Positions 3 to 64,000 of a stretch of DNA of 64,000 nt are shown one piece after another. Below the pieces are notes generated by a model. The model was given only the letters and a program-made list of their open reading frames with translations. It had not been told where the DNA came from and made no database searches. A program made the translations under genes and the position numbers. The first letter of the stretch is position 1. Each line of letters opens with the position of its first letter. Origin of the DNA: Acidobacteriota bacterium (GTDB lineage Bacteria > Acidobacteriota > Thermoanaerobaculia > Multivoradales > UBA5704); the NCBI GenBank assembly GCA_040005235.1, contig JBDTZG010000026.1, positions 13,354 through 77,353 of the forward strand. Direction: 5' to 3'.

Positions 3-548
3 TGCCTTTCCGCCGTGCTGCGCTCCGCCGGACAGGAAGCCGATCAGCCGCGCCTGATGCGCCTGATTGCCAGGAAGGCGCGCTATTACCAGGAGCGCAT
101 CCGCGCCGGGGGCTATCCGTTCTTCCCCGGGGCGGTCGAGCTGATCCGCTCGGTCTCTGCTGCCGGCTGCATGCTGGGAGTGGTCTCGGGAGCGCTCCAA
201 GAGGAGGTCGAGGGGGCTCTGCGCCAGGCGGAATGCCTCGACCTGTTCAAGACGATCGTCGCCGCCGAAGACGTCACCGAGGGGAAGCCCGATCCGGAGG
301 GGTACAGGAAGGCGCTCGATGCGCTCAATTCCGAGCCGCCGCTGCCCGCCCGGCTGTTTCATCCCCACGAGGTGCTGGCGATCGAAGACAGCCCCGCCGG
401 GCTGTCGGCGGCCTCCGATGCGGGCTTTAGGACCCTAGGGGTCGCCCAAACCTATCCGCCCGGACAGCTGGGCCTCGCCGAGAAGGTGGTACCCGCCGTC
501 GCGGGGTTGACCTTTGAAGGGATTCTGGCGCGGTTCCAAGGGGCTTAA
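3..548 (+). CDS. HAD-superfamily phosphatase (beta-PGM/CbbY-like), 5' end outside window
   Basis: Motifs GVVSG, GKPDPEGY and LAIEDSPAG match HAD motifs II-IV. Motif I is absent because the frame runs off the window start. Confidence 0.85.
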   Translation, partial: CLSAVLRSAGQEADQPRLMRLIARKARYYQERIRAGGYPFFPGAVELIRSVSAAGCMLGVVSGALQEEVEGALRQAECLDLFKTIVAAEDVTEGKPDPEGYRKALDALNSEPPLPARLFHPHEVLAIEDSPAGLSAASDAGFRTLGVAQTYPPGQLGLAEKVVPAVAGLTFEGILARFQGA

Positions 549-598
549 GGGCGGGCCAACCGCCCATGGCATACAATCCACCGGCTCGACCGGCCGCT

Positions 599-1168
599 AT
601 GCTCAACGTCCCCAACATTTTGAGTCTGTTTCGCATCCTGCTCGTACCGCTGATGGTGGTCGCGCTGTTTACGAAACCCAAATACTTCGGCCAGGAGTGG
701 ATCGGCCTCGGGTTGTTCCTGCTCGCCTCGCTGACCGATTTTCTCGACGGATTCCTGGCGCGGCGGCGAAAGCAGATCACCCGGCTGGGGCAAATTCTCG
801 ACCCGGCGGCGGACAAGATCTTGACCTCGGCGGCGTTCATCTCGCTGGTCGAGCTGAATCCGCGGGTGGTGCCGGCCTGGATCGTGGTGGTGATCATCGC
901 CCGCGAGTTCGCGGTGACCTCGTTGCGCAGCTTCGCCGCGGCGGAAGGAATCGTCATCCCGGCCGCCCCCTCGGGCAAGGTCAAGACCACGCTTCAGATC
1001 GTTGCGATCTCGCTCTTGATCGTCTACAACGAGTTGGGGGAGTTCCGCCACCTCGCCCCGATCTCCCTCTGGCTCGCCATGCTCGTGACCGTCTGGTCGG
1101 GCATCGATTACTTTCTGCAATTCGGCCGCCGCCTCTTAAAAAGCGAAGGCCCTCCGGTGGTGCCATGA
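599..1168 (+). CDS. pgsA: CDP-diacylglycerol--glycerol-3-phosphate 3-phosphatidyltransferase (CDP-alcohol phosphatidyltransferase)
   Basis: NVPNILSLFRI start and the signature DFLDGFLARRRKQITRLGQILDPAADK. ATG at 599 chosen over 566. Confidence 0.9.
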   Translation: MLNVPNILSLFRILLVPLMVVALFTKPKYFGQEWIGLGLFLLASLTDFLDGFLARRRKQITRLGQILDPAADKILTSAAFISLVELNPRVVPAWIVVVIIAREFAVTSLRSFAAAEGIVIPAAPSGKVKTTLQIVAISLLIVYNELGEFRHLAPISLWLAMLVTVWSGIDYFLQFGRRLLKSEGPPVVP

Positions 1169-10926: not shown

Positions 10927-11577
10927 TCATTCGCTCGCCGCCTCGGCGGGCGCTTTCGGTAGGAAGGCCACTACGAGCACAAATGGATAGTCCACGCCGG
11001 GGCTCTCGGTGTGGGGGGCGGCGTCAACGTCGAGGGGCAACTCGGTCAGGGTCTCCTGGACCGCCTCTGTCGTCAAGCGATCCGCGCGGCTGCTCACGAA
11101 TCGCCAGATCACCTGTGCCTGGGTCGCGGGCTCAAGGCGAAAGGGTCCGTCGTTGAAGGCCGCCGCGATCTCTCCTCGACACGGCGACGACGCGCCCGCG
11201 GGGCAGAGGCTGACCAGCGCCCTCTCCGCTTCGAGGCTTCGCCGCACCAGCGGATCGCACGTTTCGACCTCGCGCGACGGCACGGCAGCGCAAAGGCGAA
11301 TCCGCACCTCCCGTGAGGCTTCATCCACAACTTCTACCGGTGCTACGTAGGGAATGCCAATGTGCATGACGTCTCGCGAGCGAGCGCAGCGGATCAGCAC
11401 TGCGGTCGCCGACGTCATGACGGCTTGCTGTTGATCTGCGGAGAGCTGAGAATCGCGAGGGGCAGAGATGTCTGCGCACCATTCCACTCGCGACGGTACG
11501 GCGATGTCCAAGACTTCCGCGTGTGCGGCGAGTGCGGCAAGAAGCGAAATAGGCACCCAGAGTGCTGAACGGTTCAT
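10927..11577 (-). CDS. Secreted Cys-containing hypothetical protein (weak GyrI-like resemblance)
   Basis: Signal peptide MNRSALWVPISLLAALAAHA; GGGAGG RBS at the upstream gene's stop. The start could instead be GTG 11583. Confidence 0.65.
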   Translation of the reverse strand: MNRSALWVPISLLAALAAHAEVLDIAVPSRVEWCADISAPRDSQLSADQQQAVMTSATAVLIRCARSRDVMHIGIPYVAPVEVVDEASREVRIRLCAAVPSREVETCDPLVRRSLEAERALVSLCPAGASSPCRGEIAAAFNDGPFRLEPATQAQVIWRFVSSRADRLTTEAVQETLTELPLDVDAAPHTESPGVDYPFVLVVAFLPKAPAEAASE

Positions 11578-11594
11578 GTTCACGAAAGGCCTCC

Positions 11595-14500
11595 CTATAG
11601 TTGCCCGAGGCATAGCAGATTGCCCGTTGGAGTGGCCAACGAGCTGGCCAGAAACCCAACGCCCTTTGCAAGCCCCGTTGCAAGGGCAGACTCCGCCAGA
11701 TCGAAGGAACCGGACAGTAGCGGGTTAATGCTGACTCTGAGGATGTCGTCGATTAGGGGCACCGATGAGTCGACCTGCGGGGAGACGCCACCAGCCAACA
11801 GCACGCCCCCCGACAAGCTGGCGACCGAGACGATCCCGCGATTGCAGACGCGGAGCCTTCCATCCGCGAGCTGCAGCAGCGGGTTCGTCAGCATAGCTGT
11901 GGCGCCCAAAGCATGGACCTCGAACCTCTTGTGCCATTTCAAGGCGACCTTGTCGTGGAGCTTCGTCTTCCACTCGCAGCCCTCATATCGGACACAGCCG
12001 CAGATGCCAAACACGCACTTCGTCTCGGTGCAGCAGAGTCCAGACGTTGACACCCACTTCTCGGGAAGGACTTCGAACTCCTCTGGCTCGGTGTCGCACG
12101 ACGCACCGCTGGTGCTCTTGAGTAGAACTCCGAGCGGCGCCAGGTTGCCGGTCGCCGCGAAGTGGCCCTCTCGGACCATTACGTCGAGGGCGGCCCCTCC
12201 CGAGGCGTAGTTGTACTCGACAGGTATGTTCAGCTTGCAGAATGCTTCGGCAGGTATCGACGATGTAGCCCAGCCGGTGAACGCACCGACCTTGGCGGTT
12301 CCTTTGCCGGATAGCTGGTCAGAAAGCCCACTTGCCGTCGCCGAAATCTCAAACCCGGCATTGTCGTTGATGTGTGCTTCCCCGCTGACGCTCAACCGCC
12401 CGGATGCCCAGAAGGAGACATCCTGATACTTATACTGCACGGGTTCGCTCTGTGGCAACACGCTCACGGAAACGGCGCTCACAGTCAGTCGCGCTTCGCC
12501 AACCGCTACGTCGGTACCGAACTGAACAGCGGCGTTCCGAAGATCCAAGGAGAAACCGCTGAAGGTGACAGGGAGTAACGTCAGCGAATCTGCCAGCATG
12601 GCTGAGCCGCTCATCCGGTCGAGCTTGATCGGAGCGGCTGGTGTCGCCTCGAAGGCAACCTCGCTCGGTCGGTCTGCGGGCCGCGGATGCGAGACATGGG
12701 ACGAGTCGATGGTGAGGCCGGCCAGGCTGAACTCTGCCAGCTCGCCATTCGCTACCAGCGTCAGCTCCCGGAGTTTGATCCGCGGCGCGCTGATCAGGGT
12801 GCCGGAAAGATCGATAGTAGCCGACGGGTCGAGAAGGGCGAACTCGACATCCCTGGCCGCAAACTGGCCGCTCAACAGGGACACGTGCCCGGTCGCGAGG
12901 TCGAGGCCGATGCGCACCGTTCCCTGCGCCGAGAGCGCCAGCGTCGCACGCGCCTCTTTGCCCTTTTCGCCGATCCGGATGATGGGCTGCCCGAGGGCGA
13001 GTAGCTCGCTGCTAATGGTGAGTGCGCCAGTGGTCTCTTTGCCCACCGCGAGCGGCGTCGCGTTGGTGAGCACCACTCCAGCCGAAGCGAAGGATGGTGT
13101 GGCCCCCGCCATGAATGGCTTCGTGGCGACCGTGCTGGCCAAGGTCAGTCGCAGGCCATCGGCTGGCACCTCCAGGCGGCTCTTCTCGAGCTCGGGCCAC
13201 TGGAGAGCCACAACACCGGAAAGGTTTCCCTCGGTGATCGATGCCGAGAGCAGGGCCTCTTGGTTGTCGTCGAAAATCGTCACCGAGGATCCCACAGGCG
13301 GAAGGGCGATCGCGAGTGGAATCCGTATCTCGATTCCGACCGCGCCTAAGGTGAACGGGAGTGATATCCCTTGAGAGATCTCGACGCGCCCGATCTTGAA
13401 GCGTGACGCAACGAGCCTGCCCTGGGTTCTCATACTGTTGGGCGCACCGCTGACCTCTAGATGGAGCGTCTCGGCGGATTCGGCAGGAACGAGAAAGGAG
13501 AGGGCCGGCAAGTCGGGGCGCGACCAGTCGATTTTCCCATCGACTATCTTGGAGTCGAGCTTTGCGAAATGAGCCTTGACGCCACCCCGAACCAGTACGG
13601 CGTCCCCCGTCGTCTTGACCTCACCCCGATCGGACTCCAAGGCAACGTCGCTGCTCGAGAGCGCCGACAGCACCAAGCCCTGGCCCGCAGGTGCTTCGAC
13701 CACTGAAGTCAGCTCTTTGACGTGGAGCGTCGGACGGTCCAGAGCCGCCGTGTCGGTGTCTCGCACGAACACGGCGGTGCCAGCCGTCCCTTCCAAGTTA
13801 TGCACAATCGCTGTCGACTGCCCACCTATGGTCTTGATCTCGAAGTTCTGAACCTTTAGCGTGGCCTCTCGGAGAACGACGGGCCCCAGCGCTAGCTCGG
13901 CAGCGGCAAAGGAGACGAGTGAGGTGCTGCGCATCCTTGCCTTCCAGAATCGCGCGAGGCGCTTGGCGAGGTCGAGATGCACGGTCACGTTCTCGGTGTC
14001 CGGCGAGATGGGCGCGAGGTCTGCAGTCGTCACGGCGCCACCCGGGAGAGTGATGGCAGCGCCCATGACATTGCGTTTCCAGGCCTCGATCTGCAACGTG
14101 CCCTCGAGCCGGTCCGGCAAGGCGAGGACCCGGGTCACGTTCTCGACGTAAAGCAGGGCGCCGGCGAGAGGCATGGTGCCTCCGGCGAGGCTGATGGTAC
14201 CGGACTGAACACGGCTCAGCGTCGCCTTGAACTGGCGGGCATCGATCTGAAACCGATTCCCGCCCCCGTTGTTGGAGCGGAATAGCTGTGCGTTCAGGAT
14301 TGGAAGAGCTTGGATGGTTCCCGCGAGCAGAAGGTGGATCCCCTTTTTCTCGGCTTCCAGGGCAATCTCCTCGCAGCTGAGCTGGGCTTCCTGGTCCGGC
14401 AAGGTGCTATCGAAAATGAACAATCCCGCCCGGGAGCGCCTTGCAGGGTCGAGCTCATAGCTCCAGGGTACCCACATGCCATCGGGCTTCGGATTGGCGC

Positions 14501-29867: not shown

Positions 29868-30190
29868 TGCTCTATAAGCCACATGGAGAGAATAGTTTGC
29901 GGCAAATCCGAAAGATGTAAGGCGAGAGTGTCGACGCCCGGTGGTCCTCGCTGATTTTGCCGCCGCCGGAAAGTTCTGCGTAAGGAAGAAAGAGGTGCGG
30001 TAGGCGTGAGAGGATGCCCCGAAGGCGCCTGGCCGTTCAATGAGCGCGAGTTCGTGGATGTTTTTGGGTTGAGTAAGAAGGGCCACCCGGGGCAAAGAGG
30101 CGTAGGATGCAGGTCAGGCACTTCTCGGCTTCAAGCGACAAGGTACCACCGCGAAGTCGGTCGTACGCGGTTGGGCGACGGGAGTCGGAA

Positions 30191-32995
30191 ATGGCGAATG
30201 GGAACAAGGGTCGGGCGAAAGCCCCTTCGGGGGCCGAGCGGATGCTCAGGTCCCAGCCGCCCGCCCAGCCGGTCGCGGGAGAAGGTTCTGCCGACGGAAC
30301 GGACGAAGCGGGCGATCATGGCCTCTTCCCGGTGATTGGAATCGGTGCCTCGGCCGGGGGGCTCGCGGCGTTCGAGGCGTTTTTCTCCGGCATGCCGGCC
30401 GGTGCGGACACGGGAATGGCGTTCGTGCTGGTGCAGCACCTGGCGCCGGACCACAAGAGCCTTTTGGCCGATCTGATCCGCCGCAGGACCCGCATGCAGG
30501 TCTTCGAGATCGAGGACGGCATGCCGGTGCAGCCCAACCGCGTCTACATCATTCCGCCCAACCATGACCTGGCGTTCTTGCATGGGACGCTGCAGCTGCT
30601 CGATCCGGCCGAGGCGAGAGGCCAGCGCCTGCCGATCGATTTCTTCTTTCGCTCGCTCGCCGCGGACCTGCGGGAGTGCGCGATCGGCATCGTGCTGTCC
30701 GGCACCGGGGCCGACGGCACCCAAGGGGTGCGGGCGATCAAGGCCCAAGGCGGCATGGTGATGGCGCAGACCCTCGCGTCCACCGAGTTCGACGGCATGC
30801 CGAGGAGCGCGGTCGGCACCGGCCTGGTGGATTACGAGCTGCCTCCGGCCGAGATGCCCGCCCGGCTGATCGACTACGTCGCGCGCTCGTTCGGCAAGCT
30901 ACCGCGTTCGGCCACCGTCACGCCGACGCAGGAGTCGAAGGCGCTCGAAAAAGTCTTCGTCCTGCTGCGCGCCCAGACCGGCCACGATTTCTCAGGTTAC
31001 AAGCCGAGCACGATCGAGCGGCGGATCGAGCGGCGCATGGCGATCCACCAGGTCGAAACGCTCGACGGCTACGCCAAGTATCTGCAGCGGACCCCGGCCG
31101 AGGTGGAGGCTTTGTTTCGCGACCTGCTGATCGGCGTCACCCATTTCTTCCGCGATACGGAAGCCTTCGAGGTGCTGGAGCGGGAGGTCATTCCCTCGCT
31201 CTTTGCCGGCAAGCCCGCGGGTGCCCCGATTCGCGTCTGGTCGGTGGGGTGCTCCACCGGCGAAGAGGCCTATTCGCTCGCCATTCTTCTGCAAGAGCGG
31301 AAGGAGGCGATCAAGGCCACCAACTCGGTGCAGGTGTTCGCCACCGACATCGACAGCGTGGCAATCGCCACGGCCCGGCTGGGAATCTATCCGGCGAGTC
31401 TCGACATGGACATCTCGCCGGAGCGGCTGGCGCGCTTCTTTTCCCTAGAGCCCGACGGCGGCGTGTATCGGATTCACAAACGCATTCGCGACCTGCTGAT
31501 CTTTTCCGAGCAGGATGTGATCAAAGACCCGCCGTTTTCCAAGCTCGATCTGATCTGTTGCCGCAACCTCTTGATCTATCTCGGGGCCGACCTGCAGAAG
31601 AGAGTCATTCCCCTCTTTCACTATGCCTTGAACCCGGAGGGACGGCTGTTCCTCGGGACGTCCGAAGGGGTCGGCGAATTCTCCGATCTGTTCGCGGTCC
31701 TCGACCGCAAGTCGAAGTTGTACAAGCGGAAAGAAGAACCGGGCGGACGGGAGCGCCAGGCATTGCGCCGGGTTCTGGAGAGCCGGACGGCGATCGATGT
31801 TGCGCTGAGGCTTCCCGCCAAGACGGCCTTTCGCGGGAAGCTGCCGCTTCGCGAGCTGGTCGAGCAGACGCTCCTTGAGCAGGGGGTGCCGCCCTGCGCG
31901 TTGGTCAACGGCCAGGGCGACATCCTCTACCAGCACGGCCGCACCGGTCTGTTCCTGGAGCCGGCGCCGGGCGAAGCGGGGATCACCAACGTTATGAAGA
32001 TGGCGCGCGAGGGGCTGCGGCCCGGCTTGACCACCAGCCTGCATCGCGCGGTGAGCCGCCAGGAGGTGGTGCGAGCCGCCAATCTTCGGGTCAAGGCCAA
32101 CGGCCATTTCATCCGGGTCCATCTGACGATTCGCCCGGTCGCAGTCCGTCCGGGTGGAGAAGGCACCCCCGCTCTTTTCATGGTCCTGTTCGAAGAGGCA
32201 CCGGATGCCGAAACCGGCGCGGCGCAGACGGCCGCCACGGCGGCGGACGGCGGAACCGAAACTCCGGTCGCGCGGATCGCGACGCTGGAGCAGGAATTGC
32301 GGGCCAAGGAGGAATACCTTCAAACCACGCACGAGGAGCTGGAGAGCTCGATCGACGAGTTGCGCACCTCGAATCAGGAAATGCAGTCGATCAACGAGGA
32401 GCTGCAATCCACCAACGAGGAGCTGGAGACCTCGAAGGAAGAGCTGCAGTCGGTCAACGAAGAGCTGGCGACGGTGAACAACGAGTTGCAGACCAAGGTG
32501 GCCGACCTGTCGCAGACCAACAACGACATGAACAACCTGCTCGCCGGCACCGGGATCGCGACTGTCTTCGTCGATCACCAGCTGCAGATTCTGCGCTTCA
32601 CCCCCACCGCGTCGCAGTTGATCCACCTGATCAAAAGCGACGTGGGCCGGCCGGTCGGGCACCTGGTCTCCAATCTGGTCGGTTATGACAGCCTGGTGGC
32701 CGACGTGCAAGAGGTGCTGGACACCCTGGTCCCGAAGGACGCGCAGGTGGCGACCCAGGCCGGCCTCTGGTTCACCATGCGCATCCGCCCCTATCGCACG
32801 CTGGACAACGTCATCGAAGGGGCGGTGATCACTTTCGTCGACATCACCGAAACCAAGCACGCCCAGGAGGCGCTCGCCCTTGCGAACGATCGGATCCGGC
32901 AGGCGATGATGGCGCGCGACGCCGAAGAGGTCCTCGTCCTAGAGGAAAGACGACGAGGCGTGGCGATCAGCCGCAACGAAGGAGGCGCAGAGTGA
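30191..32995 (+). CDS. CheB methylesterase-CheR methyltransferase fusion with coiled coil and PAS domain
   Basis: GASAGG/QHL/SGTGADG (CheB triad), WSVGCSTGEEAYS (CheR), ELQSTNEEL heptads, C-terminal PAS. Confidence 0.92.
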   Translation: MANGNKGRAKAPSGAERMLRSQPPAQPVAGEGSADGTDEAGDHGLFPVIGIGASAGGLAAFEAFFSGMPAGADTGMAFVLVQHLAPDHKSLLADLIRRRTRMQVFEIEDGMPVQPNRVYIIPPNHDLAFLHGTLQLLDPAEARGQRLPIDFFFRSLAADLRECAIGIVLSGTGADGTQGVRAIKAQGGMVMAQTLASTEFDGMPRSAVGTGLVDYELPPAEMPARLIDYVARSFGKLPRSATVTPTQESKALEKVFVLLRAQTGHDFSGYKPSTIERRIERRMAIHQVETLDGYAKYLQRTPAEVEALFRDLLIGVTHFFRDTEAFEVLEREVIPSLFAGKPAGAPIRVWSVGCSTGEEAYSLAILLQERKEAIKATNSVQVFATDIDSVAIATARLGIYPASLDMDISPERLARFFSLEPDGGVYRIHKRIRDLLIFSEQDVIKDPPFSKLDLICCRNLLIYLGADLQKRVIPLFHYALNPEGRLFLGTSEGVGEFSDLFAVLDRKSKLYKRKEEPGGRERQALRRVLESRTAIDVALRLPAKTAFRGKLPLRELVEQTLLEQGVPPCALVNGQGDILYQHGRTGLFLEPAPGEAGITNVMKMAREGLRPGLTTSLHRAVSRQEVVRAANLRVKANGHFIRVHLTIRPVAVRPGGEGTPALFMVLFEEAPDAETGAAQTAATAADGGTETPVARIATLEQELRAKEEYLQTTHEELESSIDELRTSNQEMQSINEELQSTNEELETSKEELQSVNEELATVNNELQTKVADLSQTNNDMNNLLAGTGIATVFVDHQLQILRFTPTASQLIHLIKSDVGRPVGHLVSNLVGYDSLVADVQEVLDTLVPKDAQVATQAGLWFTMRIRPYRTLDNVIEGAVITFVDITETKHAQEALALANDRIRQAMMARDAEEVLVLEERRRGVAISRNEGGAE

Positions 32996-39091: not shown

Positions 39092-41176
39092 TTACCCTTC
39101 GACGACCGGCGCCGGTTCCTCGGCCTTCGGCACTTCGATAATCACATCCGAGGGCCTGACCTCGAGGACCGGTTCCTCGGCCTTGGGCTCCTCGGCCACG
39201 GGTTCCGGTTTCGCTGCCGGTTCCGGGGCGGGCGGAGCGTCTTCGAGGCCGCGGGTCATCATGTCGGAGACCGCTCGGTTGAAGCGAACGACGTCCGGGA
39301 TCTCGGCGCTTTCGGCGAGTAGGCCGTAGCCGAGCAGCATCTGGGCGTAGTCCTCGATCCGCGAATCTTTCGGATCGGCATGCCACAGCCCGTGAAGGCG
39401 GGTGAGGATTGGGTGGCTCGGATTCAGCTCGACGATCCGGCGCTGCGCCGGGCCGCCGCCCTTGCCCTTTTGGAGCAGCCGTTCGAGCTGCGGGCTGTAG
39501 TCGTGCTCGGCGCCGACCAGGCAGACGGGCGAGCTGGTGAGCCGGTTGGTCAGACGCACCTGCTTGACGTGGATGTCGAGCAGCTTTTGGAGATGGTCGA
39601 GGAACGGCCGCAGGTGCTCTTCCTTGTCCTTGAGCTCCGCTTCGACCTTCTTCTGCTCGTCCTCGTTGCCCAGCTTGACCGTGCCTTTTTCCACCGACTT
39701 CAACTTCTTGCCCTGGACCTCTTGGAGCGACTGCACCAGCAGCTCGTCGACCGTGTCGGTCAGGAACAGGACTTCGATCCCCTTCGCCTTGAACGCTTCG
39801 AGGTGGGGCGAGTTCTCGACCACCTCGCGCGATTCGCCGGTCAGATAGAAGATCTCGGCCTGACCCTCCTGCATGCGGGAGATGTAGTCGGCGAACGAGG
39901 TCAGTTTTTCCTTGTCGGCCGACGACTCGAAGACCAGCAGATTGAGCAGCTTCTCTTTGTTCTCGTAATCCGAGCTGGTGCCTTCCTTCAGGCAGCGGCC
40001 GAAGTGCTTCCAGAACTTCAAGTACGTCTCGTTCTCGTTCGCCTTCATCTCCTCGAACGATTCGAGCAGCTTCTTGGTCAGCCACTTCTTCATCTGGGCG
40101 ATGTGGCGGTCCTGCTGCAGCATCTCGCGCGAGACGTTCAACTGAAGATCGGGCGAATCGACCACGCCGCGGACGAAGCGGAGGTACTGCGGCAGCAGGT
40201 CCTCGCACTTTTCCATGATCTGGATCCGCTTGACGTAGAGCTGGAGGGCCGGTTTGGACGCCACGTAGTACAGGTCGTACGGCGCCTCGGACGGGATGAA
40301 CAGCAGTGATTGGTACTCGATGCGCCCCTCGGCCTTGTACGACAGCACCTTGAGCGGCTCGTTCCAATCGTGGGCGATGTGGCGGAAGAAGTCCTTGTAC
40401 TCCTCGGCCGTCACCTCGGCCTGTGGCCGGGTCCAGATCGGCTTCATCGAGTTGAGCGTCTTGTCCTCAATCCGGACCGTCACGTCCTCGCCCATCACCT
40501 TCTTGTCGAGGTCTTCGTCGTTCTCGGCCTTGAGGACGATCGGATAGGTGACGAAGTCCGAATAGCGGCGGACCACGCGCTGGATCGCCCAGCGCTCGGC
40601 GAAGTCGTCGAGGCCGTTATCCTTGTCTTCCGGCTTCAGGTGGAGCGTGATCGTCGTTCCGTGGCCCTTCCGCTCGCCCTCTTCCAGCTGGTAGGTGCCG
40701 TCGCCGGTCGATTCCCAGCGCCAGGCCTGATCCTCGCCCGCGCGGCGGGTGACCAACACGACCTTGTCGGCGGCCATGAAGGACGAATAGAAGCCGACGC
40801 CGAACTGGCCGATCATCTCGGCGATCGCCTGCTTGGATTCGGCCGCGTCCATCTTCTCGACCATCTCGCGGGTGCCCGATTTCGCGATCGTGCCGATGTT
40901 GTTGATCAGCTCCTCGCGGTTCATGCCGATGCCGTTGTCGGCGATCGTCAAGGTGCGCGGCTCCTTGGTCGTGTCGAGGCGGATTTCGAGCTTCTCCTCG
41001 CCCAACAGCTCGGGGTGGGTGAGCGCCTCGAAGCGCAGGCGGTCGAGCGCGTCGGACGCGTTCGAGATCAGCTCGCGCAGGAAGATCTCTTTGTTCGAGT
41101 ACAGCGAGTGGATCATCAGGTCGAGCAGCTTCTTGGTCTCGGCCTGAAACTGATGGGTTTCGACAGGGGCAGCCAT
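39092..41176 (-). CDS. htpG: Molecular chaperone HtpG (Hsp90)
   Basis: YSNKEIFLRELISNASDALD, IGTIAKSGT, IGQFGVGFYS, LNVSREMLQ; GAGGAGG RBS; acidic Pro/Glu tail. Confidence 0.97.
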   Translation of the reverse strand: MAAPVETHQFQAETKKLLDLMIHSLYSNKEIFLRELISNASDALDRLRFEALTHPELLGEEKLEIRLDTTKEPRTLTIADNGIGMNREELINNIGTIAKSGTREMVEKMDAAESKQAIAEMIGQFGVGFYSSFMAADKVVLVTRRAGEDQAWRWESTGDGTYQLEEGERKGHGTTITLHLKPEDKDNGLDDFAERWAIQRVVRRYSDFVTYPIVLKAENDEDLDKKVMGEDVTVRIEDKTLNSMKPIWTRPQAEVTAEEYKDFFRHIAHDWNEPLKVLSYKAEGRIEYQSLLFIPSEAPYDLYYVASKPALQLYVKRIQIMEKCEDLLPQYLRFVRGVVDSPDLQLNVSREMLQQDRHIAQMKKWLTKKLLESFEEMKANENETYLKFWKHFGRCLKEGTSSDYENKEKLLNLLVFESSADKEKLTSFADYISRMQEGQAEIFYLTGESREVVENSPHLEAFKAKGIEVLFLTDTVDELLVQSLQEVQGKKLKSVEKGTVKLGNEDEQKKVEAELKDKEEHLRPFLDHLQKLLDIHVKQVRLTNRLTSSPVCLVGAEHDYSPQLERLLQKGKGGGPAQRRIVELNPSHPILTRLHGLWHADPKDSRIEDYAQMLLGYGLLAESAEIPDVVRFNRAVSDMMTRGLEDAPPAPEPAAKPEPVAEEPKAEEPVLEVRPSDVIIEVPKAEEPAPVVEG

Positions 41177-41433
41177 GCGGTCCTCCTCTTGCCTGACGCT
41201 CGAATTGTTGAAGTTCGGGGAGCCCGGGACGGTGAGCAACGTTCCGTCGAGGCGTACTCGACCCCAGATGTTTCCGTATTGTACCAGTGCCTCGGGAGAG
41301 TCAACCAGAGACTGCGGGATAGGGGCTAAGATTCTGCTCGCCCACCTCCAGTCTAAGCATCGAACACTCAAGATGAGCCGCTGAATTCCCAGGAAGGGGA
41401 CCGAAGGGGGCGGCGACGGCTGCTAGACTCGCG

Positions 41434-57732: not shown

Positions 57733-59094
57733 ATGGCCACCCTCTTCGACGATCAGGAGCCTCCGAAAACGGCAGGTGTGCAGGAACCCGGTCCGGGCTC
57801 TCCTTTGCCGGAGCGGATGCGGCCCCGCACCCTCGACGAGATCGTGGGGCAGGAGGCGGTGGTGGGGAAAGATGGCTTCCTTCGCCGGGCGATCGAGGCG
57901 GACCGCGTGCCCTCTCTCGTCTTCTGGGGACCTCCCGGCTGCGGCAAGACGACCCTCGCTCGGGTGATCGCGACGGCGACCGCGGCGCGGTTCGTGCCGT
58001 TTTCGGCCGTGACCTCCGGCATCAAGGAGGTCAAGGAGGTGATGGCCGAGGCGGCCGAGCACCGCCGCCGTACGGCCAAGCGCACGCTCCTGTTCGTCGA
58101 TGAGATCCACCGCTTCAACCGCGCCCAGCAAGACGCCTTTCTTCCGTATGTCGAGCGCGGCGACATCGTGCTCGTGGGGGCGACCACAGAGAACCCGTCG
58201 TTCGAGATCAACGCGGCGCTCCTTTCTCGCTCGCGCGTCGTGGTGCTCGAACCGATTGGCGTAGAAGCGCTCGCGGGCCTGCTCCGCCGCGCGCTCGAAG
58301 ATCCGGAGCGGGGGTTGGGCGCCTTGGGGCTCGGCGCCGACGCCGAGGCGCTCGACTCGCTCGCGCAGCTCGCCTCGGGCGACGCCCGCAAGGCCCTGAA
58401 CCTTCTGGAGCTGGCCGCCGCCGATGCGGTCGAAGAAGGGCTGCCGGCGCTCACGCCCGAATCGGTCCGCCGCGTGGCGCAGAAGAAGGTCCTGCTCTAC
58501 GACAAGTCGGGCGAAGAGCACTTCAATCTGATCTCGGCGCTCCACAAGTCGCTCCGCGAAAGCGACCCGGACGCCGCGCTCTATTGGCTGTACCGCATGC
58601 TGGAAGCCGGTGAAGAGCCGCTCTACCTCGCGCGGCGAATGATCCGCTTCGCGAGCGAAGACGTCGGCCTCGCCGATCCGAACGCCCTGGTCCAAACTTT
58701 AGCCGCGGCCGACGCCTACCACCGCCTCGGCAGCCCGGAAGGCGAGCTGGCGCTCGCCCAAGCGTGCCTCTATCTGGCGCTCGCGCCCAAAAGCAACGCG
58801 ATCTACGCCGCGACCGGCCGGGTCAAAAAGACGATCGAAGAGCGCCCCGCCGAACCGGTGCCCCCCGTCATTCGAAATGCCCCCACCCGCCTGATGGCCG
58901 GGCTGGGCTACGGCAAAGGATACGTCTACGCCCCCGACACGCAAGAAGGCGTCGGCGGCCTCGACTGCCTGCCCGAAGCGCTCCAGGGCACCCGTTTCTA
59001 CCAGCCGAAAGGCGAGGGCTTCGAAGCTCGCCTCAAGGAGCGGATGGAGAAGTTCCGCGCGCTGCGGCAGACGGCCCGCGGGAAACGGGGGTAG
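57733..59094 (+). CDS. rarA: Replication-associated recombination protein A
   Basis: PLPERMRP, WGPPGCGKTT, FVDEIHRFN, GATTENPSF, ISALHKS, ASEDVG. Confidence 0.95.
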   Translation: MATLFDDQEPPKTAGVQEPGPGSPLPERMRPRTLDEIVGQEAVVGKDGFLRRAIEADRVPSLVFWGPPGCGKTTLARVIATATAARFVPFSAVTSGIKEVKEVMAEAAEHRRRTAKRTLLFVDEIHRFNRAQQDAFLPYVERGDIVLVGATTENPSFEINAALLSRSRVVVLEPIGVEALAGLLRRALEDPERGLGALGLGADAEALDSLAQLASGDARKALNLLELAAADAVEEGLPALTPESVRRVAQKKVLLYDKSGEEHFNLISALHKSLRESDPDAALYWLYRMLEAGEEPLYLARRMIRFASEDVGLADPNALVQTLAAADAYHRLGSPEGELALAQACLYLALAPKSNAIYAATGRVKKTIEERPAEPVPPVIRNAPTRLMAGLGYGKGYVYAPDTQEGVGGLDCLPEALQGTRFYQPKGEGFEARLKERMEKFRALRQTARGKRG

Positions 59095-59145
59095 CTTTTC
59101 CCTGGGCGCGCCAGGCTCCAGCCTGGCCGTTTTTCCGGGATCGGC

Positions 59146-59169
59146 TATGATTCGCGCCGCACTGCGGCG
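59146..59169 (+). promoter_or_regulatory. -10 box plus perfect palindrome CGCCGCA-C-TGCGGCG (PhaR-box-like)
   Basis: TATGAT at 59146-59151; palindrome at 59155-59169, 24 nt before the first ArsA-like ATG. Confidence 0.55.
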
Positions 59170-59193
59170 AACCCTCCGATTTCGAGCCCCCTC

Positions 59194-60111
59194 ATGCCGA
59201 CCTCTCTCGTCCATCGCCAGTTGATCGTCGTCACCGGCAAGGGGGGCGTAGGCAAGACGTCGGTCGCCGCATTGCTCGGCAGCGCGCTCGCCGCGGCAGG
59301 ACGGCGAACGCTGGTGGCCGAGGTCGATCCGCGGGAGAACTTGCACCGGATGCTCGGGGTTCCCCCGTCGGGCGGGGAGATCCTGCGCGCGGGCGGCAAG
59401 CTCTGGGTCCAGAACTTGAGCCCTCAACGGGTGATCGACGACCTGGTCCGCGAGCAGCTCAAATTCGGCCTGATTTCCCGCCGGGTGCTCGAAAGCCCGA
59501 TCTATCAGCACTTCACGGCCGGGGCTCCGGGTTTGAAGGAGATGGCGGTGCTCGGCCACGCCCTGCGCGTGCTGCGCGGCGAGGCGGGGAAGGACGCTCC
59601 GGCGATCGAGACCGTCATCCTCGATGCTCCCGCGACCGGCCACGGCGTGGCGCTGCTCGCGGCGCCGCACTTGGTTTCCGAGGCGGTCCGCTCCGGGCCG
59701 ATCCATCGCATGTCGGGTGAGGTGGCGGAGCTGATCGCCGATCCCGCCCGGTCGGCGATCGTCGCCGTCACGCTCGCCGAGGAGATGCCGGTGCAAGAGG
59801 TGCTGGAGCTGGCCGAGACCCTGCGCAGCCGGGTCGGCCGCGAGCCCGAGCTGCTGGTGGCGAACGGGTTGTTTCCTCCCGTTCCGGCGGAGGAGGCCGA
59901 CGAAACCGCCACCGCCACCGCCGATCCCGCGGGCCACCTCTGGCGGCGCCGCCGGGCGAGCCAGGAGCGCGAGCTGGCGCGCCTCGCCGAGCTGTGGCCG
60001 GGAAGCCGGATCGACCTGCCCCAGCTGCCGCTCGCCGGCGGGCCGGAGCTAGTCGCGACGCTGCGCCGCGAGGCGGAATCCCAACCGGCTTGGAGCGAGC
60101 TGTGGAGCTGA
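59194..60111 (+). CDS. ArsA/Get3-like ATPase, subunit 1
   Basis: GKGGVGKTS, APGLKE, LDAPATGH, TLAEEMPVQE. No Cys residues, so no arsenite ligands. Confidence 0.88.
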   Translation: MPTSLVHRQLIVVTGKGGVGKTSVAALLGSALAAAGRRTLVAEVDPRENLHRMLGVPPSGGEILRAGGKLWVQNLSPQRVIDDLVREQLKFGLISRRVLESPIYQHFTAGAPGLKEMAVLGHALRVLRGEAGKDAPAIETVILDAPATGHGVALLAAPHLVSEAVRSGPIHRMSGEVAELIADPARSAIVAVTLAEEMPVQEVLELAETLRSRVGREPELLVANGLFPPVPAEEADETATATADPAGHLWRRRRASQERELARLAELWPGSRIDLPQLPLAGGPELVATLRREAESQPAWSELWS

Positions 60112-61187
60112 TCTCTTCCGACGCGCCGCTGCTCGTGTTCGTCGGCGCCGGGGGTGTCGGCAAGACCACCCTCGCCGCTTCGACGGCGCTGCGCGCCGCC
60201 CGCGAGGGGAAGCGCACCCTGGTGATGACGTTCGATCCCTCCCTCCGCTTGAAAGATGCGCTCGGGGTGGGCGAAGAGGCGCGCGACCGGGAGGTGCCGG
60301 TCGATCTTTCCGGCCTCGCGCCGATCCGGGCCGGCGGCTCGCTCCACGCGAGCCTGCTCGATGCGCGGCGGACGTTCGACCGGTTGATCGAGCGCTATGC
60401 CCCCGATCCCGCCGTGCGCGAACGGATCCTCGGCAATTCTTTCTACGGGCAGCTCTCCGGCTCGCTCGGCGGCATCCTCGAATACATGGCGGTCGAGCGC
60501 CTGTTCGAGGCCGCGGGCGACGGTAGTTACGACCAGGTCATTCTCGATACGCCTCCCACCCGCCAGGCGCTCGATTTCCTGGAGGCACCCGCGCGGATCA
60601 TGGGCTTTCTCGACAGCGGCGCGCTCAAGGTGGCGCTCAAGCCCTGGTTCGACGAGAAGGGCCGGTTGAAGCCCGCAACTCGCTGGGGCGGCCTGGGGCG
60701 GAAATTCGAGAGTTTTCTCGACGACGTGGTCGGGCTCGATCTGTTGCGCGACATGGCGGAGTTCTTCCAGGTGTTCGCGCCGCTTTTCGCCGGCTTCCGC
60801 GAGCGGGCGAGCGAAGTCGAAGACCTCCTCCGCTCCGCCCGGACACGTTTCATGCTGGTCGCCGGTCCGGGCGAGGAGGCGATCCCCGACGCCCTGTTCT
60901 TCGCCCGGCGGCTCGGCCAGGCGGGGCTCCACCTCGGTGCGCTGGTGGTCAATCGGGTGCACCCCCTGCTAACGCCGCTCCCTCAGGGGGGCGATGAGCG
61001 CGATGGCCGTCATCTGCTCGCTTGGCTGGGGGAGCGCGACCGGAACGGGCTGGCCCGGCTGGCGGAGCTTGCCGGGCCGCGGCAACCGCTCCTGCCGGTG
61101 CCGCTTTCAGCCGATGAACCGACCGATCTGCCCGCCCTTGCGGCCCTTGGTGACTTCCTTGCAGAAGGTCTTTCCGAGGGGCATTGA
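60102..61187 (+). CDS. ArsA/Get3-like ATPase, subunit 2
   Basis: GAGGVGKTT (signature Lys replaced by Ala), TFDPS.RL, EYMAVERL, LDTPPTRQALDFL. The GTG start overlaps the subunit 1 end. Confidence 0.88.
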   Translation: MELISSDAPLLVFVGAGGVGKTTLAASTALRAAREGKRTLVMTFDPSLRLKDALGVGEEARDREVPVDLSGLAPIRAGGSLHASLLDARRTFDRLIERYAPDPAVRERILGNSFYGQLSGSLGGILEYMAVERLFEAAGDGSYDQVILDTPPTRQALDFLEAPARIMGFLDSGALKVALKPWFDEKGRLKPATRWGGLGRKFESFLDDVVGLDLLRDMAEFFQVFAPLFAGFRERASEVEDLLRSARTRFMLVAGPGEEAIPDALFFARRLGQAGLHLGALVVNRVHPLLTPLPQGGDERDGRHLLAWLGERDRNGLARLAELAGPRQPLLPVPLSADEPTDLPALAALGDFLAEGLSEGH

Positions 61188-61236
61188 CGCAGCGCGGCAA
61201 GATTGCTTGACGAATCATGCCGCAGTGCGGTAATTT
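61185..61236 (+). promoter_or_regulatory. phaR promoter with two TGCCGCA-N-TGCGGCA-like operators
   Basis: TGACGCA-G-CGCGGCA (61185) and TGCCGCA-G-TGCGGTA (61218). The second lies within TTGACG-18-TAATTT. Confidence 0.6.
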
Positions 61237-61292
61237 CCTTTTGCGGGGGTAGTAGCCGCCGCGAACGGACGAACCAGAAAGAAGGTACCGCA

Positions 61293-61736
61293 ATGGTCCG
61301 CCTGATCAAGCGTTACGAAAGCCGCAAGCTGTATGACACCGAAGAGAGCCGCTATGTCGGGCTCGACGAGATCGCCGCCTGGGTCCGCGAGGGCCAGGAG
61401 ATCCGTGTGGTCGACAACGGCAGCGGTACGGACGTGACGCCGCAGACCCTGACTCAAATCATCTTGGACGAGGGGCGCAAAGGCACCTCGTTCCTTCCGA
61501 GCGACCTGCTCCACGATCTCGTACGGATCGGCGAGCGGGCCGTGCATGCGGGCAAAGAGCAGTTGGCCCAAGGTGTGGACAAACTGGTGCAGGCGTCGAT
61601 CGATCACCTCGGGCCCGTGCGCAAGGTGCGCGAGGAGATGGCGAGTCTGCGCAACCGGCTCGAAGATCTGGAAGCTTCGCTCGCCGATCTCGATCCCGCC
61701 TCGAGCCCGAAGACCGAAGAGGCCGAGCCGAGCTGA
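61293..61736 (+). CDS. phaR: PHA synthesis regulator with PhaR-type DNA-binding domain
   Basis: IKRYESRKLYDTEESRYV.L..I...VREG....VVD..SG.DVT..TLTQII. Confidence 0.88.
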   Translation: MVRLIKRYESRKLYDTEESRYVGLDEIAAWVREGQEIRVVDNGSGTDVTPQTLTQIILDEGRKGTSFLPSDLLHDLVRIGERAVHAGKEQLAQGVDKLVQASIDHLGPVRKVREEMASLRNRLEDLEASLADLDPASSPKTEEAEPS

Positions 61737-61781
61737 CCCGTCCCGCCTCGTCACGAAGCGTTACCCAGAACGGAGAACACC

Positions 61782-62174
61782 ATGATCCAGGAACTAGAGA
61801 GCGCGACCGACAAAACCGGCGCCGTGCTTCAAAAGATGGGCCGCGACCTCGCGGCGACCGGCCGCAACGCCTGGCTCGCAGGGTTGGGCGTCGTGGCGGA
61901 GGCCGACGAACAGGGCCGCAGCCTGTTCGACCGCTTGGTCGAGCGCGGCCGGCCGCTGGCCGAAAAGCAGAAAGAGACGTTCGCCGAGGCGACCGACAAA
62001 ATGGAGCGGTCGGCTCGCGAGCTCGGCAAGCTGGTCAACGACTCGGTCGAATACGAGGTCCGCGGCGCTCTCGGGCGTTTCGGCCTCGCGACGCGCGACG
62101 ATCTAAAGGCGCTCGAAAGGCGTCTCGAAAACCTGTCGCGCCAGCTCGACGACCTCACCGTCGTCGGCTCGTAA
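61782..62174 (+). CDS. Phasin-family granule-associated protein (PhaI/PhaF-like)
   Basis: RNAWLAGLG...LFDRLVERG...GLATRDDL..L..RLE.L. Confidence 0.85.
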   Translation: MIQELESATDKTGAVLQKMGRDLAATGRNAWLAGLGVVAEADEQGRSLFDRLVERGRPLAEKQKETFAEATDKMERSARELGKLVNDSVEYEVRGALGRFGLATRDDLKALERRLENLSRQLDDLTVVGS

Positions 62175-62215
62175 GCACCGCAGCACCCAACCACACAAAC
62201 TCAAGGGGATTCCCC

Positions 62216-62614
62216 ATGGCTACTCAAGAGAAGAAGATCCAGGACGATGTGAAGGACTCTGCCCACCGCATTTGGCTCGCGGGGCTCGGCGCGCTGGCCG
62301 CCGCTGAGGAGGAAGGCTCGAAGCTGTTCTCCCGCCTGGTCGAGCGCGGCAAGGGTTTCGAGGCCGACGGCAAAGATCAATTCGCCAAGGCCAAGAAGAA
62401 GGCCGAGAAGGTCTACGAGGACGTGAGCGAGACGGTCGACGAGAAGGTGACCGCCGCCCTTCATCGCCTCGGCGTGCCGACCCGCGAAGAGATCAAGCAC
62501 CTGACCAAGAAGGTCGAGGAGCTGACCGCGAAGGTCGAGCAGCTCAAGCCGAAGGTCGCCGCCGCGGCCGCCGACGAAGAGAAGAAGGCTCCGGCGCGCA
62601 ATAAGGCCGAGTAA
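62216..62614 (+). CDS. Phasin-family granule-associated protein (PhaF/PhaI-like)
   Basis: SAHRIWLAGLGA...EEGSKLFSRLVERG...LHRLGVPTREEI; short Ala/Lys tail. Confidence 0.88.
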   Translation: MATQEKKIQDDVKDSAHRIWLAGLGALAAAEEEGSKLFSRLVERGKGFEADGKDQFAKAKKKAEKVYEDVSETVDEKVTAALHRLGVPTREEIKHLTKKVEELTAKVEQLKPKVAAAAADEEKKAPARNKAE

Positions 62615-62691
62615 CTTTCCATCCTTAGGCGGCCGGTTCCCTCGCGGAGCGAGAGAGCCGGCCGGTCGATTCACCTTTCGGGAGCGGAGGG

Positions 62692-63942
62692 GTGTCCAGC
62701 GTGAGCAAGGCACGGACGGCGGGAAAGACCCACGGTGGCAAGATCGGACTCGCGCTCGCCGGGGGTCTGATGGAGGGCGCGATCTACGAGATCGGCGCAC
62801 TCCGTGCGCTCGACGAAGTGCTCGACGGCTTCGACTTCAACGCGGCGCACATCTACGTCGGCGTCTCGGCCGGTGCGTTCTTGGCGGCGTGTCTCGCGAA
62901 CAACCTGACCACCGCACAGATGTGTCGCGCGATCGTCTCCACCGAGCCGGGCGAGCACCCGTTCGTTGCCGAGACTTTCCTCACCCCCGCCTTTTCCCGC
63001 GTCGCCGGGACCGCAACCGCGCTGCCGCGCCTGTTGTTCGAGGCGATCCAGGACTACGTCGCCCGCCCGGCCGAGAAGTCGTTCCTGGGCTCGCTCACTC
63101 GGCTCTCCCGGTCGCTGCCGATTGGCCTGTTCGACAACGAACCGATCGTTCGGTACCTCGAACGGGTCTGGAGCATCAAAGGCAGGACCGACGACTTCCG
63201 CAAGCTCGGCAAACACCTGGTGGTGGTCGCCACCGATCTCGATTCCGGCCAGGCGGTGCGTTTCGGCGAGCCGGGTTTCGATCACATCCCGATCTCCAAA
63301 GCGGTCCAGGCCAGCTCGGCGCTGCCCGGAATCTATCCGCCGGTCGACATCGAAGGGCGGCACTACGTCGATGGGATCCTGATCAAGACACTCCACGCCT
63401 CGGTCGCACTCGAAGCGGGCGCCGACCTGGTGCTCTGCATCAACCCCATTGTCCCGGTAGATCTCGCCCGCGCCCGCGGCGCCGGCTATGAGGGGAACGG
63501 GAACCTGAGGAGTATGGGGCTGCCGACCGTGTTGTCGCAGACCTTTCGAACCCTGATTCATTCGCGGCTCGAAATCGGCATGGCGGCCTACAAGACCAAG
63601 TTCAAGGACGCCGACGTCGTCCTGTTCGAGCCCGACCGCAACGATCACCGGATGTTCTTCACCAACATCCTCGGTTTCTCCGAGCGCCGCAGGGTCGCCG
63701 ACCACGCCTACCGCTCGACCCGCCGCGACTTGCTCCGTCGCGCGCCGGAGCTGGGTCCCCAACTGGCCAAGCACGGCATCACGCTACGCACCGACCTGCT
63801 CGAAGATCTCGACCGCGACCTCTGGGAGAGCGTCGGCCCGAGCGGCGGCCGGCACGCCCGCAAGGAATCGACCAGCGACGTCGCCGATCGCCTCGATTCG
63901 GCTCTCGACCGGCTCAGCACCTGGATGGACAGGCAAAACTAA
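62692..63942 (+). CDS. Patatin-like phospholipase / putative intracellular PHA depolymerase
   Basis: LALAGG..EGAIYEIG, GVSAG nucleophile, ASSALPG, YVDG. Confidence 0.88.
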   Translation: MSSVSKARTAGKTHGGKIGLALAGGLMEGAIYEIGALRALDEVLDGFDFNAAHIYVGVSAGAFLAACLANNLTTAQMCRAIVSTEPGEHPFVAETFLTPAFSRVAGTATALPRLLFEAIQDYVARPAEKSFLGSLTRLSRSLPIGLFDNEPIVRYLERVWSIKGRTDDFRKLGKHLVVVATDLDSGQAVRFGEPGFDHIPISKAVQASSALPGIYPPVDIEGRHYVDGILIKTLHASVALEAGADLVLCINPIVPVDLARARGAGYEGNGNLRSMGLPTVLSQTFRTLIHSRLEIGMAAYKTKFKDADVVLFEPDRNDHRMFFTNILGFSERRRVADHAYRSTRRDLLRRAPELGPQLAKHGITLRTDLLEDLDRDLWESVGPSGGRHARKESTSDVADRLDSALDRLSTWMDRQN

Positions 63943-63960
63943 GCGGAGCACGAGCTTTTC

Positions 63961-63987
63961 CCCGGGACCGCCGAGCACCAGCTCGGC
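63961..63987. repeat. Further copy of the REP-like unit at 21323
   Basis: CCCGGGACCGCCGAGCACCAGCTCGGC is identical over 27 nt. Confidence 0.9.
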
Positions 63988-64000
63988 ATCGAGGCGGTCG

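Follow-up and report, generated by a model that had tools for sequence, protein, structure and literature searches.

A 64 kb stretch of genomic DNA from a bacterium of the phylum Acidobacteriota, class Thermoanaerobaculia, hereafter called the window, was analyzed for a block of six closely packed, co-oriented genes on the + strand at 59194-63942. The open reading frame (ORF) listing and the Pfam/NCBIfam scans give the gene order as bagA-like, bagB-like, PhaR-like, phasin 1, phasin 2, and patatin (Table 1). The window's genome is 6.22 Mb in size and 100% complete, with 0.33% contamination. A preliminary description of this DNA had reported an overlapping, Cys-free ATPase pair upstream of and co-oriented with phaR, two phasins, and a patatin, in a window without phaC or arsB/C/R. 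Both statements are borne out by the ORFs and the family scans. The BagA-like and BagB-like proteins, the PhaR-like regulator, and both phasins contain 0 Cys, and no phaC or ars gene was found among the 50 window ORFs scanned, including the 44 outside the block. Position 59146, given there as the start of the region, is intergenic and lies 5' of bagA. The contig ends together with the window, 58 nt past the patatin stop; therefore nothing downstream is readable at this locus. In another genome of the same genus (L087), a type I restriction-modification methylase gene (HsdM, 11198-13174) follows the patatin gene where the contig of the window breaks.

Table 1 Features of the block and of its leader regions, in window coordinates.
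Feature	Position	Strand	Remarks
Terminator-like hairpin with T-run	59110..59127	+	3' of a rarA/mgsA-like gene; sets that gene apart from the block
Palindrome CCGCACTGCGG	59157..59167		27 nt 5' of the bagA ATG; putative operator for the PhaR-like regulator
bagA-like Get3/ArsA-fold ATPase	59194..60111	+	305 aa; deviant Walker A GKGGVGKT 59236-59259; DAPATGH 59623-59643
bagB-like Get3/ArsA-fold ATPase	60102..61187	+	361 aa from GTG 60102 (inferred start); GAGGVGKT 60144-60167; DTPPTRQ 60546-60566
Palindrome CCGCAGTGCGG	61220..61230		63 nt 5' of the phaR-like ATG; candidate autoregulatory operator
PhaR-like regulator	61293..61736	+	147 aa; PF07879
Phasin-family protein 1	61782..62174	+	130 aa; PF05597; WLAGLG motif
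Phasin-family protein 2	62216..62614	+	132 aa; PF05597; WLAGLG motif
Patatin-like lipase	62692..63942	+	416 aa; PF01734; GVSAG and VDGIL intact

Both ATPases match PF02374, with 75.6 bits for the BagA-like and 73.8 bits for the BagB-like protein. Their P-loops are both located at residues 15-22, as GKGGVGKT in the first subunit and as GAGGVGKT, without the signature Lys, in the second. The longest bagB ORF begins at 59994. GTG 60102, preceded by GGAG 6 nt upstream, was preferred and appears to be the most plausible start; with it, bagA and bagB overlap by 10 nt. The top NCBIfam models were BagA NF053622 (108 bits, below the 400-bit equivalog cut-off) and BagB NF053621 (233.3 bits, below the 521-bit equivalog cut-off). 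In the PDB search, the best solved relative of the BagA-like protein was Rv3679 (6bs3_A, E 1.8e-22), and that of the BagB-like protein was Rv3680 (6bs3_B, E 7.6e-56). The two genes are thus adjacent in the A-then-B order with each subunit nearest to its own 6BS3 counterpart, as is characteristic of a BagA/BagB pair. The same order is found in 77 of 80 bagAB loci of a species-level genome collection, where a BagA-like gene lies 5' of BagB and two of the three misses are at contig edges. Since the 6BS3 counterparts and the BagA/BagB models score best, yet below the cut-offs, the pair is of the BagAB type but from a distinct branch.

The ArsA model TIGR04291 gave 53.7 and 52.7 bits against a cut-off of 650 bits, and the Get3 model TIGR00345 gave 70.5 and 71.5 bits against a cut-off of 135 bits, with no CxxC present. 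As neither ATPase has a Cys, neither the ArsA metalloid site nor the Get3 CxxC is possible. The two genes are the sole strong ArsA-family matches in the window's genome. The preliminary description had compared the pair with Rv3679/Rv3680 (BagAB) and had argued that it is not an arsenite exporter. The comparison agrees with the reciprocal best PDB matches, and the argument holds on the lack of Cys, of a fused ArsA, and of any other strong ArsA-family gene in the genome. By homology to 6BS3, BagA and BagB are expected to form an ATPase heterodimer. Within the helical insert of BagB, W182, F221, F225, L228, and F232 are invariant in 35 sequences, and this conserved aromatic-rich insert would fit a binding groove. 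A complex prediction of BagA, BagB, and phasin 2, each with its own 35-row alignment, returned a score of 0.00 and was used as evidence neither way.

The PhaR-like protein matches PF07879 (PhaR_N) with 86.5 bits against a cut-off of 25 bits. The DNA-binding domain PHB_acc_N is therefore present, and this N-terminal domain is the sole domain detected. TIGR01848 gave 84.8 bits, below its cut-off of 109.45, and the PhaC-like gene expected of a PhaC system is also lacking in the genome. Phasin 1 and phasin 2 match PF05597 with 71.1 and 102.5 bits (cut-off 28.8) and are the only PF05597 matches in the window's genome; for TIGR01837 they reach 55.9 and 87.2 bits, below the cut-off of 94.7. Phasin 1 is found in just part of the related loci, and phasin 2 is the copy retained where the block is kept, with WLAGLG invariant across 35 orthologues. 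The WLAGLG helix of the phasins is likely a surface anchor. Because no polyhydroxyalkanoate (PHA) synthase was found, the cognate surface of these phasins probably differs from that of a PHA granule. The last gene encodes a patatin (PF01734, 83.8 bits against a cut-off of 27.7) with GVSAG at residues 57-61 and VDGIL at residues 226-230. It is a lipase-type enzyme and not a PHA depolymerase.

The conservation of the block was surveyed in the order of the window's organism, in 201 genomes drawn evenly from the phylum, and in the species-level collection. Of the order's 41 genomes, 39 have BagB-like genes. Among the 37 loci fetched from the order, 28 show bagAB together with a phaR-like gene and, after it, phasin(s) and patatin; nine loci have no phaR nearby, two of them being cut by a contig end and four having phaR on another contig. 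In G035, G013, and G037, phaR lies 3.4-16 kb from bagAB on the same contig, and G033 has its phaR-phasin-patatin genes in divergent orientation to bagA. In the phylum sample, BagB was found in 21 of 201 genomes, and the same block in 7 of the 16 BagB loci outside the order. The collection contains 80 bagAB loci, 12 of them linked, including two from Gemmatimonadota (one Gemmatimonadales and one Gemmatimonadaceae genome). In the collection, rows from Actinomycetota, Binatia, Myxococcota, and other groups have the bagA-bagB pair without the remaining genes of the block. Two contigs were reached twice and give duplicate rows (L034/L087 and L061/L091). The GC3-based gene finder is crude below ~55% GC (L178) and above ~70% GC (L182), and both of these loci are partly annotated.

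A FastTree phylogeny was built from 131 BagB rows after 3 short rows had been dropped. All 47 linked rows fall into one 65-row clade, which has a long stem and a support of 99 and includes several Acidobacteriota families as well as the two Gemmatimonadota. The clade consists of 47 linked, 14 unlinked, and 4 cut rows, and linkage is absent from all 66 rows that fall elsewhere in the tree. The flanks of the block vary by lineage and include RarA, ALAD, transposase, aminotransferase, and GMC oxidoreductase genes. One PhaR_N gene was found in each of five extra genomes (5/5), of which two are Gemmatimonadota and three have an unlinked bagAB of the same clade. The survey of gene neighbourhoods proposed earlier as a check thus shows a bagAB-phaR-phasin-patatin linkage that is conserved well beyond the flanking synteny. 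A functional tie of bagAB to the phaR, phasin, and patatin genes is likely, and we hold it with good confidence.

A palindrome, CCGCANTGCGG, is shared by the leader regions of bagA and phaR. Exactly two perfect sites exist in the window, one in each leader; shuffles give an expectation of 0.21 sites, and 2 of 100 shuffles reach two sites. The whole genome contains 15 perfect and 546 one-mismatch sites, which corresponds to 0.021 per 230 nt. In 47/47 loci, the 200 nt 5' of phaR contain a site with <=1 mismatch, which is perfect in 36. Two copies ~31-33 bp apart are often seen there, and the Gemmatimonadota loci have the site as well. Of the 60 loci that could be evaluated for bagA, 22 have a site 5' of the gene, where ~1.3 would be expected from the genomic background. 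The site is perfect in 10 loci, namely in 7/7 of the genus's other genomes, in L087 as a duplicate row, and in G013 and G036, and nine further loci have a one-mismatch site 44-72 nt 5' of the gene. Among these nine are G023 and G026, where phaR is on another contig, and in G037, where phaR is 16 kb off. The palindrome is the predicted binding site of the PhaR-like protein, and bagAB would belong to the regulon of this protein in part of the clade. The palindrome in front of phaR was also flagged as a weak terminator-like hairpin by a simple scan. A sigma-70 scan of 58900-64000 found no promoter by its criteria; TTGACG-18-TAATTT around the second palindrome, spotted by eye, is accordingly not claimed.

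No PhaC-like gene was found in the window's complete genome at E<=0.001 with PF07167 and TIGR01836. Within the order, PhaR_N is present in 40 of 41 genomes and a PhaC-like gene in one (G031), where it adjoins phaR and where no BagB was found with the query used. In the phylum sample, PhaC-like genes and those of WS/DGAT (wax ester synthase/diacylglycerol acyltransferase) were called at E<=1e-10. PhaR_N was detected in 33 and a PhaC-like gene in 7 of the 201 genomes. The 21 BagB genomes include 18 with PhaR_N and none with a PhaC-like gene. Sorted by partner, the 33 PhaR genomes comprise 27 with BagB or WS/DGAT (9 with both) and 6 with a PhaC-like gene. Family f42 has a PhaR neighbour that is a PhaC-like gene in G195 and a WS/DGAT gene in G184 and G215.

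The window's genome contains one WS/DGAT gene. WS/DGAT was found in 34 of the order's 41 genomes, where some few matches are weak and lie in giant ORFs, and in 18 of 201 genomes of the phylum sample. PhaR_N is present in all 18 of the latter and lies 1-8 kb from WS/DGAT in 8 of them. In the annotation of these loci, PhaR points away from or lies next to operons containing genes for WS/DGAT, acyl-CoA ligase, AdhE-like reductase, GNAT, and lipase-like proteins; PhaR stands beside WS/DGAT operons in L176, L177, L179, and L180. Directly at the block, a convergent pair of WS/DGAT and ABC1-kinase genes comes after the patatin in three lineages, L103 (Gemmatimonadaceae), G142, and G033, with an HMG-CoA reductase gene between the patatin and the pair in G033. 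In L094 a PlsC-like acyltransferase and an ABC1 kinase come after the patatin. In the G142 locus (L181:7456-8702), a PF09650 'PHA_gran_rgn' protein and a ParA-like ATPase are encoded between patatin and WS/DGAT. The storage body is probably made of neutral lipid, that is, fat rather than PHA. The PHA cluster and granule context of the preliminary description could not be upheld: a PhaC-like gene was found neither in the complete genome nor in any of the 21 BagB genomes and is present in 1 of 41 genomes of the order, and neutral lipids made by WS/DGAT are indicated instead.

ABC1 (UbiB-type) kinase genes near WS/DGAT or PlsC-like genes were located at L103:11686-13314, L094:11969-14218, L173:10823-12544, and L181:10263-12185. 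Most of the block-adjacent ABC1 kinases have a C-terminal hydrophobic segment. Because of these segments the kinases would be clients of the tail-anchor type; they look tail-anchored and are possible clients of a Get3-type ATPase. According to PMC12223511, ABC1 kinases are core proteins of the cyanoglobule.

The neighbours of bagAB outside the block were also listed. In four unlinked members of the window's BagB clade, a long-chain type acyl-CoA ligase (AMP-binding_C_3) is encoded directly 5' of bagAB (L093:4300-6117, L097:3785-6094, L101:4044-5822, and L141:4119-6047), and a Crp-like regulator is found downstream in L093 and L097. On the contig of G040 (L091:9068-12102), two tandem LCAT-like genes (lecithin:cholesterol acyltransferase/PDAT-type) come right after an unlinked bagAB. 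Other unlinked pairs adjoin fatty-acyl-reductase-like (L112), KAS (L114, L157), FabH (L134), and PlsC (L117) genes, and the Rhodococcus bagAB has a PBP neighbour. In Acidimicrobiia (L109, L116, L118, L121, L122, L126, L132, L133), an NfeD-family membrane protein is encoded 5' and a stand-alone response-regulator receiver 3' of bagAB, often with a STAS protein nearby; this context is conserved and unlike that of the window. A different BagAB branch of the Acidobacteriota has, after bagB, a third ArsA-family gene that is full-length and contains an ArsA_HSP20 domain (L107:2308-3483), followed in L107 by a histidine kinase and a sigma-54 activator. Third ArsA-like segments are also present in L079, L080, L112, and L149.

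Published proteomes of lipid inclusions bear on the relatives of this pair. Rv3197 is presumably an ABC1-family protein. It is found in all three actinobacterial lipid-inclusion proteomes (PMC10699116 Table S4). The Rv3680 orthologue is listed in the Rhodococcus jostii RHA1 lipid-inclusion proteome (PMC10699116 Table S1), and the Rv3679 and Rv3680 orthologues are both listed in that of Mycobacterium smegmatis (PMC10699116 Table S3). Rv3680 is among the 168 proteins common to at least two data sets, as 'Rjos-Msmeg' with the amphipathic motif 'yes' (PMC10699116 Table S4). Rv3679, Rv3680, BagA, ArsA, and Get3 are not mentioned in the main texts of PMC10699116 and PMC11980559 or in two supplements of PMC11980559. 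PMC10597346 reports that bagAB protects M. tuberculosis against toxicity induced by glycerol and nitric oxide.

Taken together, the block may represent a storage-lipid-body module of Acidobacteriota and Gemmatimonadota, in which wax-ester/triacylglycerol droplets made by WS/DGAT are served by a co-regulated Get3-like ATPase; as a whole, this reading stands a little short of an even chance. PhaR of PHA granules in Paracoccus and Ralstonia is a repressor that is released from its operators by a hydrophobic surface. By analogy, the PhaR-like repressor would bind CCGCANTGCGG at its own promoter and, in the window's genus and several others, also at bagA, and the hydrophobic surface of the droplet would titrate it off the DNA. 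The phasin-like proteins would coat the droplet, and the patatin lipase would mobilise the stored lipid or remodel the surface. BagA and BagB would act as an asymmetric, Cys-free heterodimeric ATPase of the Get3 fold that opens and closes with ATP. BagAB may hold those segments of droplet proteins that are hydrophobic or amphipathic and either pass them onto the droplet surface or remove them. Candidate clients would be the phasins, the lipase, WS/DGAT, and the C-terminally anchored ABC1 kinases. This protein-targeting role of BagAB in particular is tentative and may well be wrong. The stronger form, in which lipid droplets have a bacterial GET-like pathway of their own with BagAB as its ATPase, droplet proteins are brought to or taken from the droplet monolayer, and a PhaR-type regulator senses the free surface and sets the level of the machinery, is unlikely, though its consequences can be stated. 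If it is true, the presence in the proteomes would imply that a role in droplet biogenesis is ancestral to the whole BagAB family, and a GET-like droplet pathway would account for the mycobacterial glycerol phenotype.

BagAB could instead be a general ATPase of lipid or membrane homeostasis (stress protection), as suggested in mycobacteria, which shares the regulon or the neighbourhood of the block but handles neither phasins nor lipase. This is a possible, if rather unlikely, explanation. It fits the clade's 14 unlinked members and the loci outside the linked clade, where bagAB adjoins varied lipid or unrelated genes, no phasin is near, and 0 of 66 rows are linked. The persistence of the five-gene order in different families and in two phyla despite changing flanks, the palindrome common to bagA and phaR, the occurrence of PhaR_N in 18 of 21 BagB genomes, and the BagA/BagB orthologues in lipid-inclusion proteomes all speak for a closer relation. 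The adjacency of bagAB and phaR might also be an inherited gene order without functional meaning, in agreement with the origin of most linked loci in one phylum and with counts that are not phylogenetically independent. It is improbable, however, since the block is conserved where its flanks are not, and since the Gemmatimonadota have the same block with WS/DGAT and ABC1 kinase as in G142. The palindrome upstream of bagA is kept where phaR has moved away, and the co-occurrence holds with the genes unlinked, as in the five extra genomes.

A true PHA-granule system with a polymer synthase too divergent to be recognised is quite unlikely. PF05597 and PF07879 are known from PHA systems, the G142 locus encodes the PF09650 'PHA system' protein, and the same kind of PhaR (family f42) lies beside a PhaC-like gene in G195. 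Nevertheless, the enzyme that is syntenic and co-occurring is WS/DGAT and not PhaC, the searches of the complete genome and of the 21 BagB genomes gave no PhaC-like match, and the genomes of the phylum sample that do have PhaC lack BagB. The deviant Walker A motif of BagA with its signature Lys, the weak Pfam matches to the CbiA/ParA/MinD families, and the separate ParA-like gene in G142 raise the question of whether BagAB positions or segregates droplets, like ATPases of the ParA/MinD type from the same SIMIBI class, without chaperoning. That function is very improbable, given that the nearest proteins by sequence are Rv3679/Rv3680, ArsA, and Get3, and that BagAB has no evident DNA- or membrane-binding tail. 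An ArsA pump ATPase stimulated by arsenite or antimonite is hardly credible: the Pfam family name of PF02374 alone suggests it, and the absence of Cys, the ArsA model scores far below the cut-off, the two half-size genes, and the absence of ars genes from the window contradict it.

Several observations weigh against the storage-lipid reading. The WS/DGAT gene of the window's genome lies on another contig, and 3 of the 12 sample genomes with a linked cluster (G132, G041, and G178) have no WS/DGAT match at E<=1e-10. PF05597 and PF07879 are annotated as PHA families, which leaves room for an unrecognised PHA synthase. Within the linked BagB clade, 14 rows are unlinked. The genomes and rows are kin and some loci are duplicates, so that the counts overstate independence. 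In 38 of 60 loci bagA lacks the palindrome upstream, and the palindrome was not found at WS/DGAT genes or promoters, nor at PhaR/WS/DGAT loci without BagAB. Other perfect sites in the genome adjoin unrelated genes (MM-CoA mutase/RNR, TetR), and the window has no more one-mismatch sites than chance would give (6 found, 6.9 expected). No wider regulon is claimed for these reasons, that is, the WS/DGAT loci without a site, the chance-level one-mismatch sites, and the unrelated genes. As for the proteomes, BagB is absent from the R. opacus table, and the shared list also holds ribosomal proteins and gyrase and is thus rich in bystanders (PMC10699116). The presence of BagAB in lipid-inclusion proteomes is only suggestive on this account.

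Some genes elsewhere in the window were recorded as well. The gene at 30107-32995 encodes a fusion protein of 962 aa in which CheB methylesterase, CheR methyltransferase, and a PAS domain are joined, and a small PAS protein comes after it. A large MMPL-family transporter (514-3798) and HtpG (Hsp90; 39092-41371) have no evident tie to the block.

The proteins of the block are new members of known families. What is new is that a BagAB-type ATPase and a PhaR-type circuit come together with phasins and a patatin lipase, with a tie to WS/DGAT, in genomes that lack PhaC. No description of an ArsA/Get3-phasin link or of a PhaR-wax-ester link was found among the literature matches listed, which are far fewer than the papers that matched. 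BagAB is a structurally solved pair for which, to our knowledge, no client is known. The conserved, co-regulated neighbourhood of the droplet type suggests a concrete and testable function for this pair, which would fit proteomic data left unremarked in the supplement of PMC10699116. Neutral-lipid storage in Acidobacteriota has been described as unexplored (PMC10351704), and the block points to such storage in abundant, mostly uncultured soil bacteria. PhaR (pfam07879) has been used as a proxy for PHA producers (bioRxiv 10.1101/2024.12.02.626346). In Acidobacteriota and Gemmatimonadota, however, PhaR-like and PF05597 genes mostly accompany WS/DGAT and bagAB, not PhaC. The proxy would misclassify these soil phyla, since PhaR is accompanied by a PhaC-like gene in just 6 of 33 genomes; in Acidobacteriota, PhaR_N does poorly as an indicator of PHA synthesis. 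The system may be a prokaryotic parallel of protein targeting to eukaryotic lipid droplets.

Compared with known systems, the pair is closest to BagA/BagB of M. tuberculosis (6BS3). Both consist of two adjacent half-size genes of the Get3/ArsA fold in equal order, with asymmetric P-loops, GKGG in the first subunit and GAGG in the second (GAGGVGKT in Rv3680), and with a DTPP motif in the second subunit. However, the pair of the window belongs to a separate, long-branched clade with scores far under the equivalog cut-offs, and in the actinobacterial loci neither phaR nor phasin nor patatin genes adjoin the pair. With ArsA, the pair shares PF02374 and a DxAPTGH-like motif in BagA, but it consists of two separate genes (305 and 361 aa) instead of a fused two-domain protein, has no metalloid-binding Cys, and is not located near ArsB/ACR3 or other ars genes.

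Get3 works as a dimer that is driven by ATP and protects hydrophobic helices. The proteins of the window share the fold family of Get3/TRC40 and match many Get3 structures significantly. The differences are that Get3 is a homodimer whereas the window encodes a predicted heterodimer of two unlike subunits, and that the pair lacks the CxxC zinc motif and scores under the TIGR00345 cut-off. We know of no Get1/2-like receptor for BagAB, and no search was made for one. Clients of Get3 include Erg1, a monotopic hairpin protein, according to PMC9123286.

The likeness to the PhaR-PhaP circuit of PHA granules consists in a PHB_acc_N regulator beside phasin genes and in an operator-like palindrome with TGC/GCA half-sites at the regulator's own promoter. 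The genomes of the window type differ from it in having no PhaC, in a regulator that lacks the PHB_acc C-terminal domain and scores under the TIGR01848 cut-off, and in the neighbours, which are patatin lipase, bagAB, and, in several lineages, WS/DGAT. No PF05597 match was found in two Rhodococcus genomes and one Microthrix genome; the coat proteins of actinobacterial droplets are therefore not of the PF05597 family, unlike the phasins of the window. With neutral-lipid droplet machinery, as in bacterial WS/DGAT bodies and in the cyanoglobules and plastoglobules with their ABC1 kinases, the block shares the WS/DGAT and ABC1-kinase genes beside it in L103, G142, and G033, and the triacylglycerol lipases of eukaryotic droplets are, like the last gene product of the block, patatin-domain enzymes.

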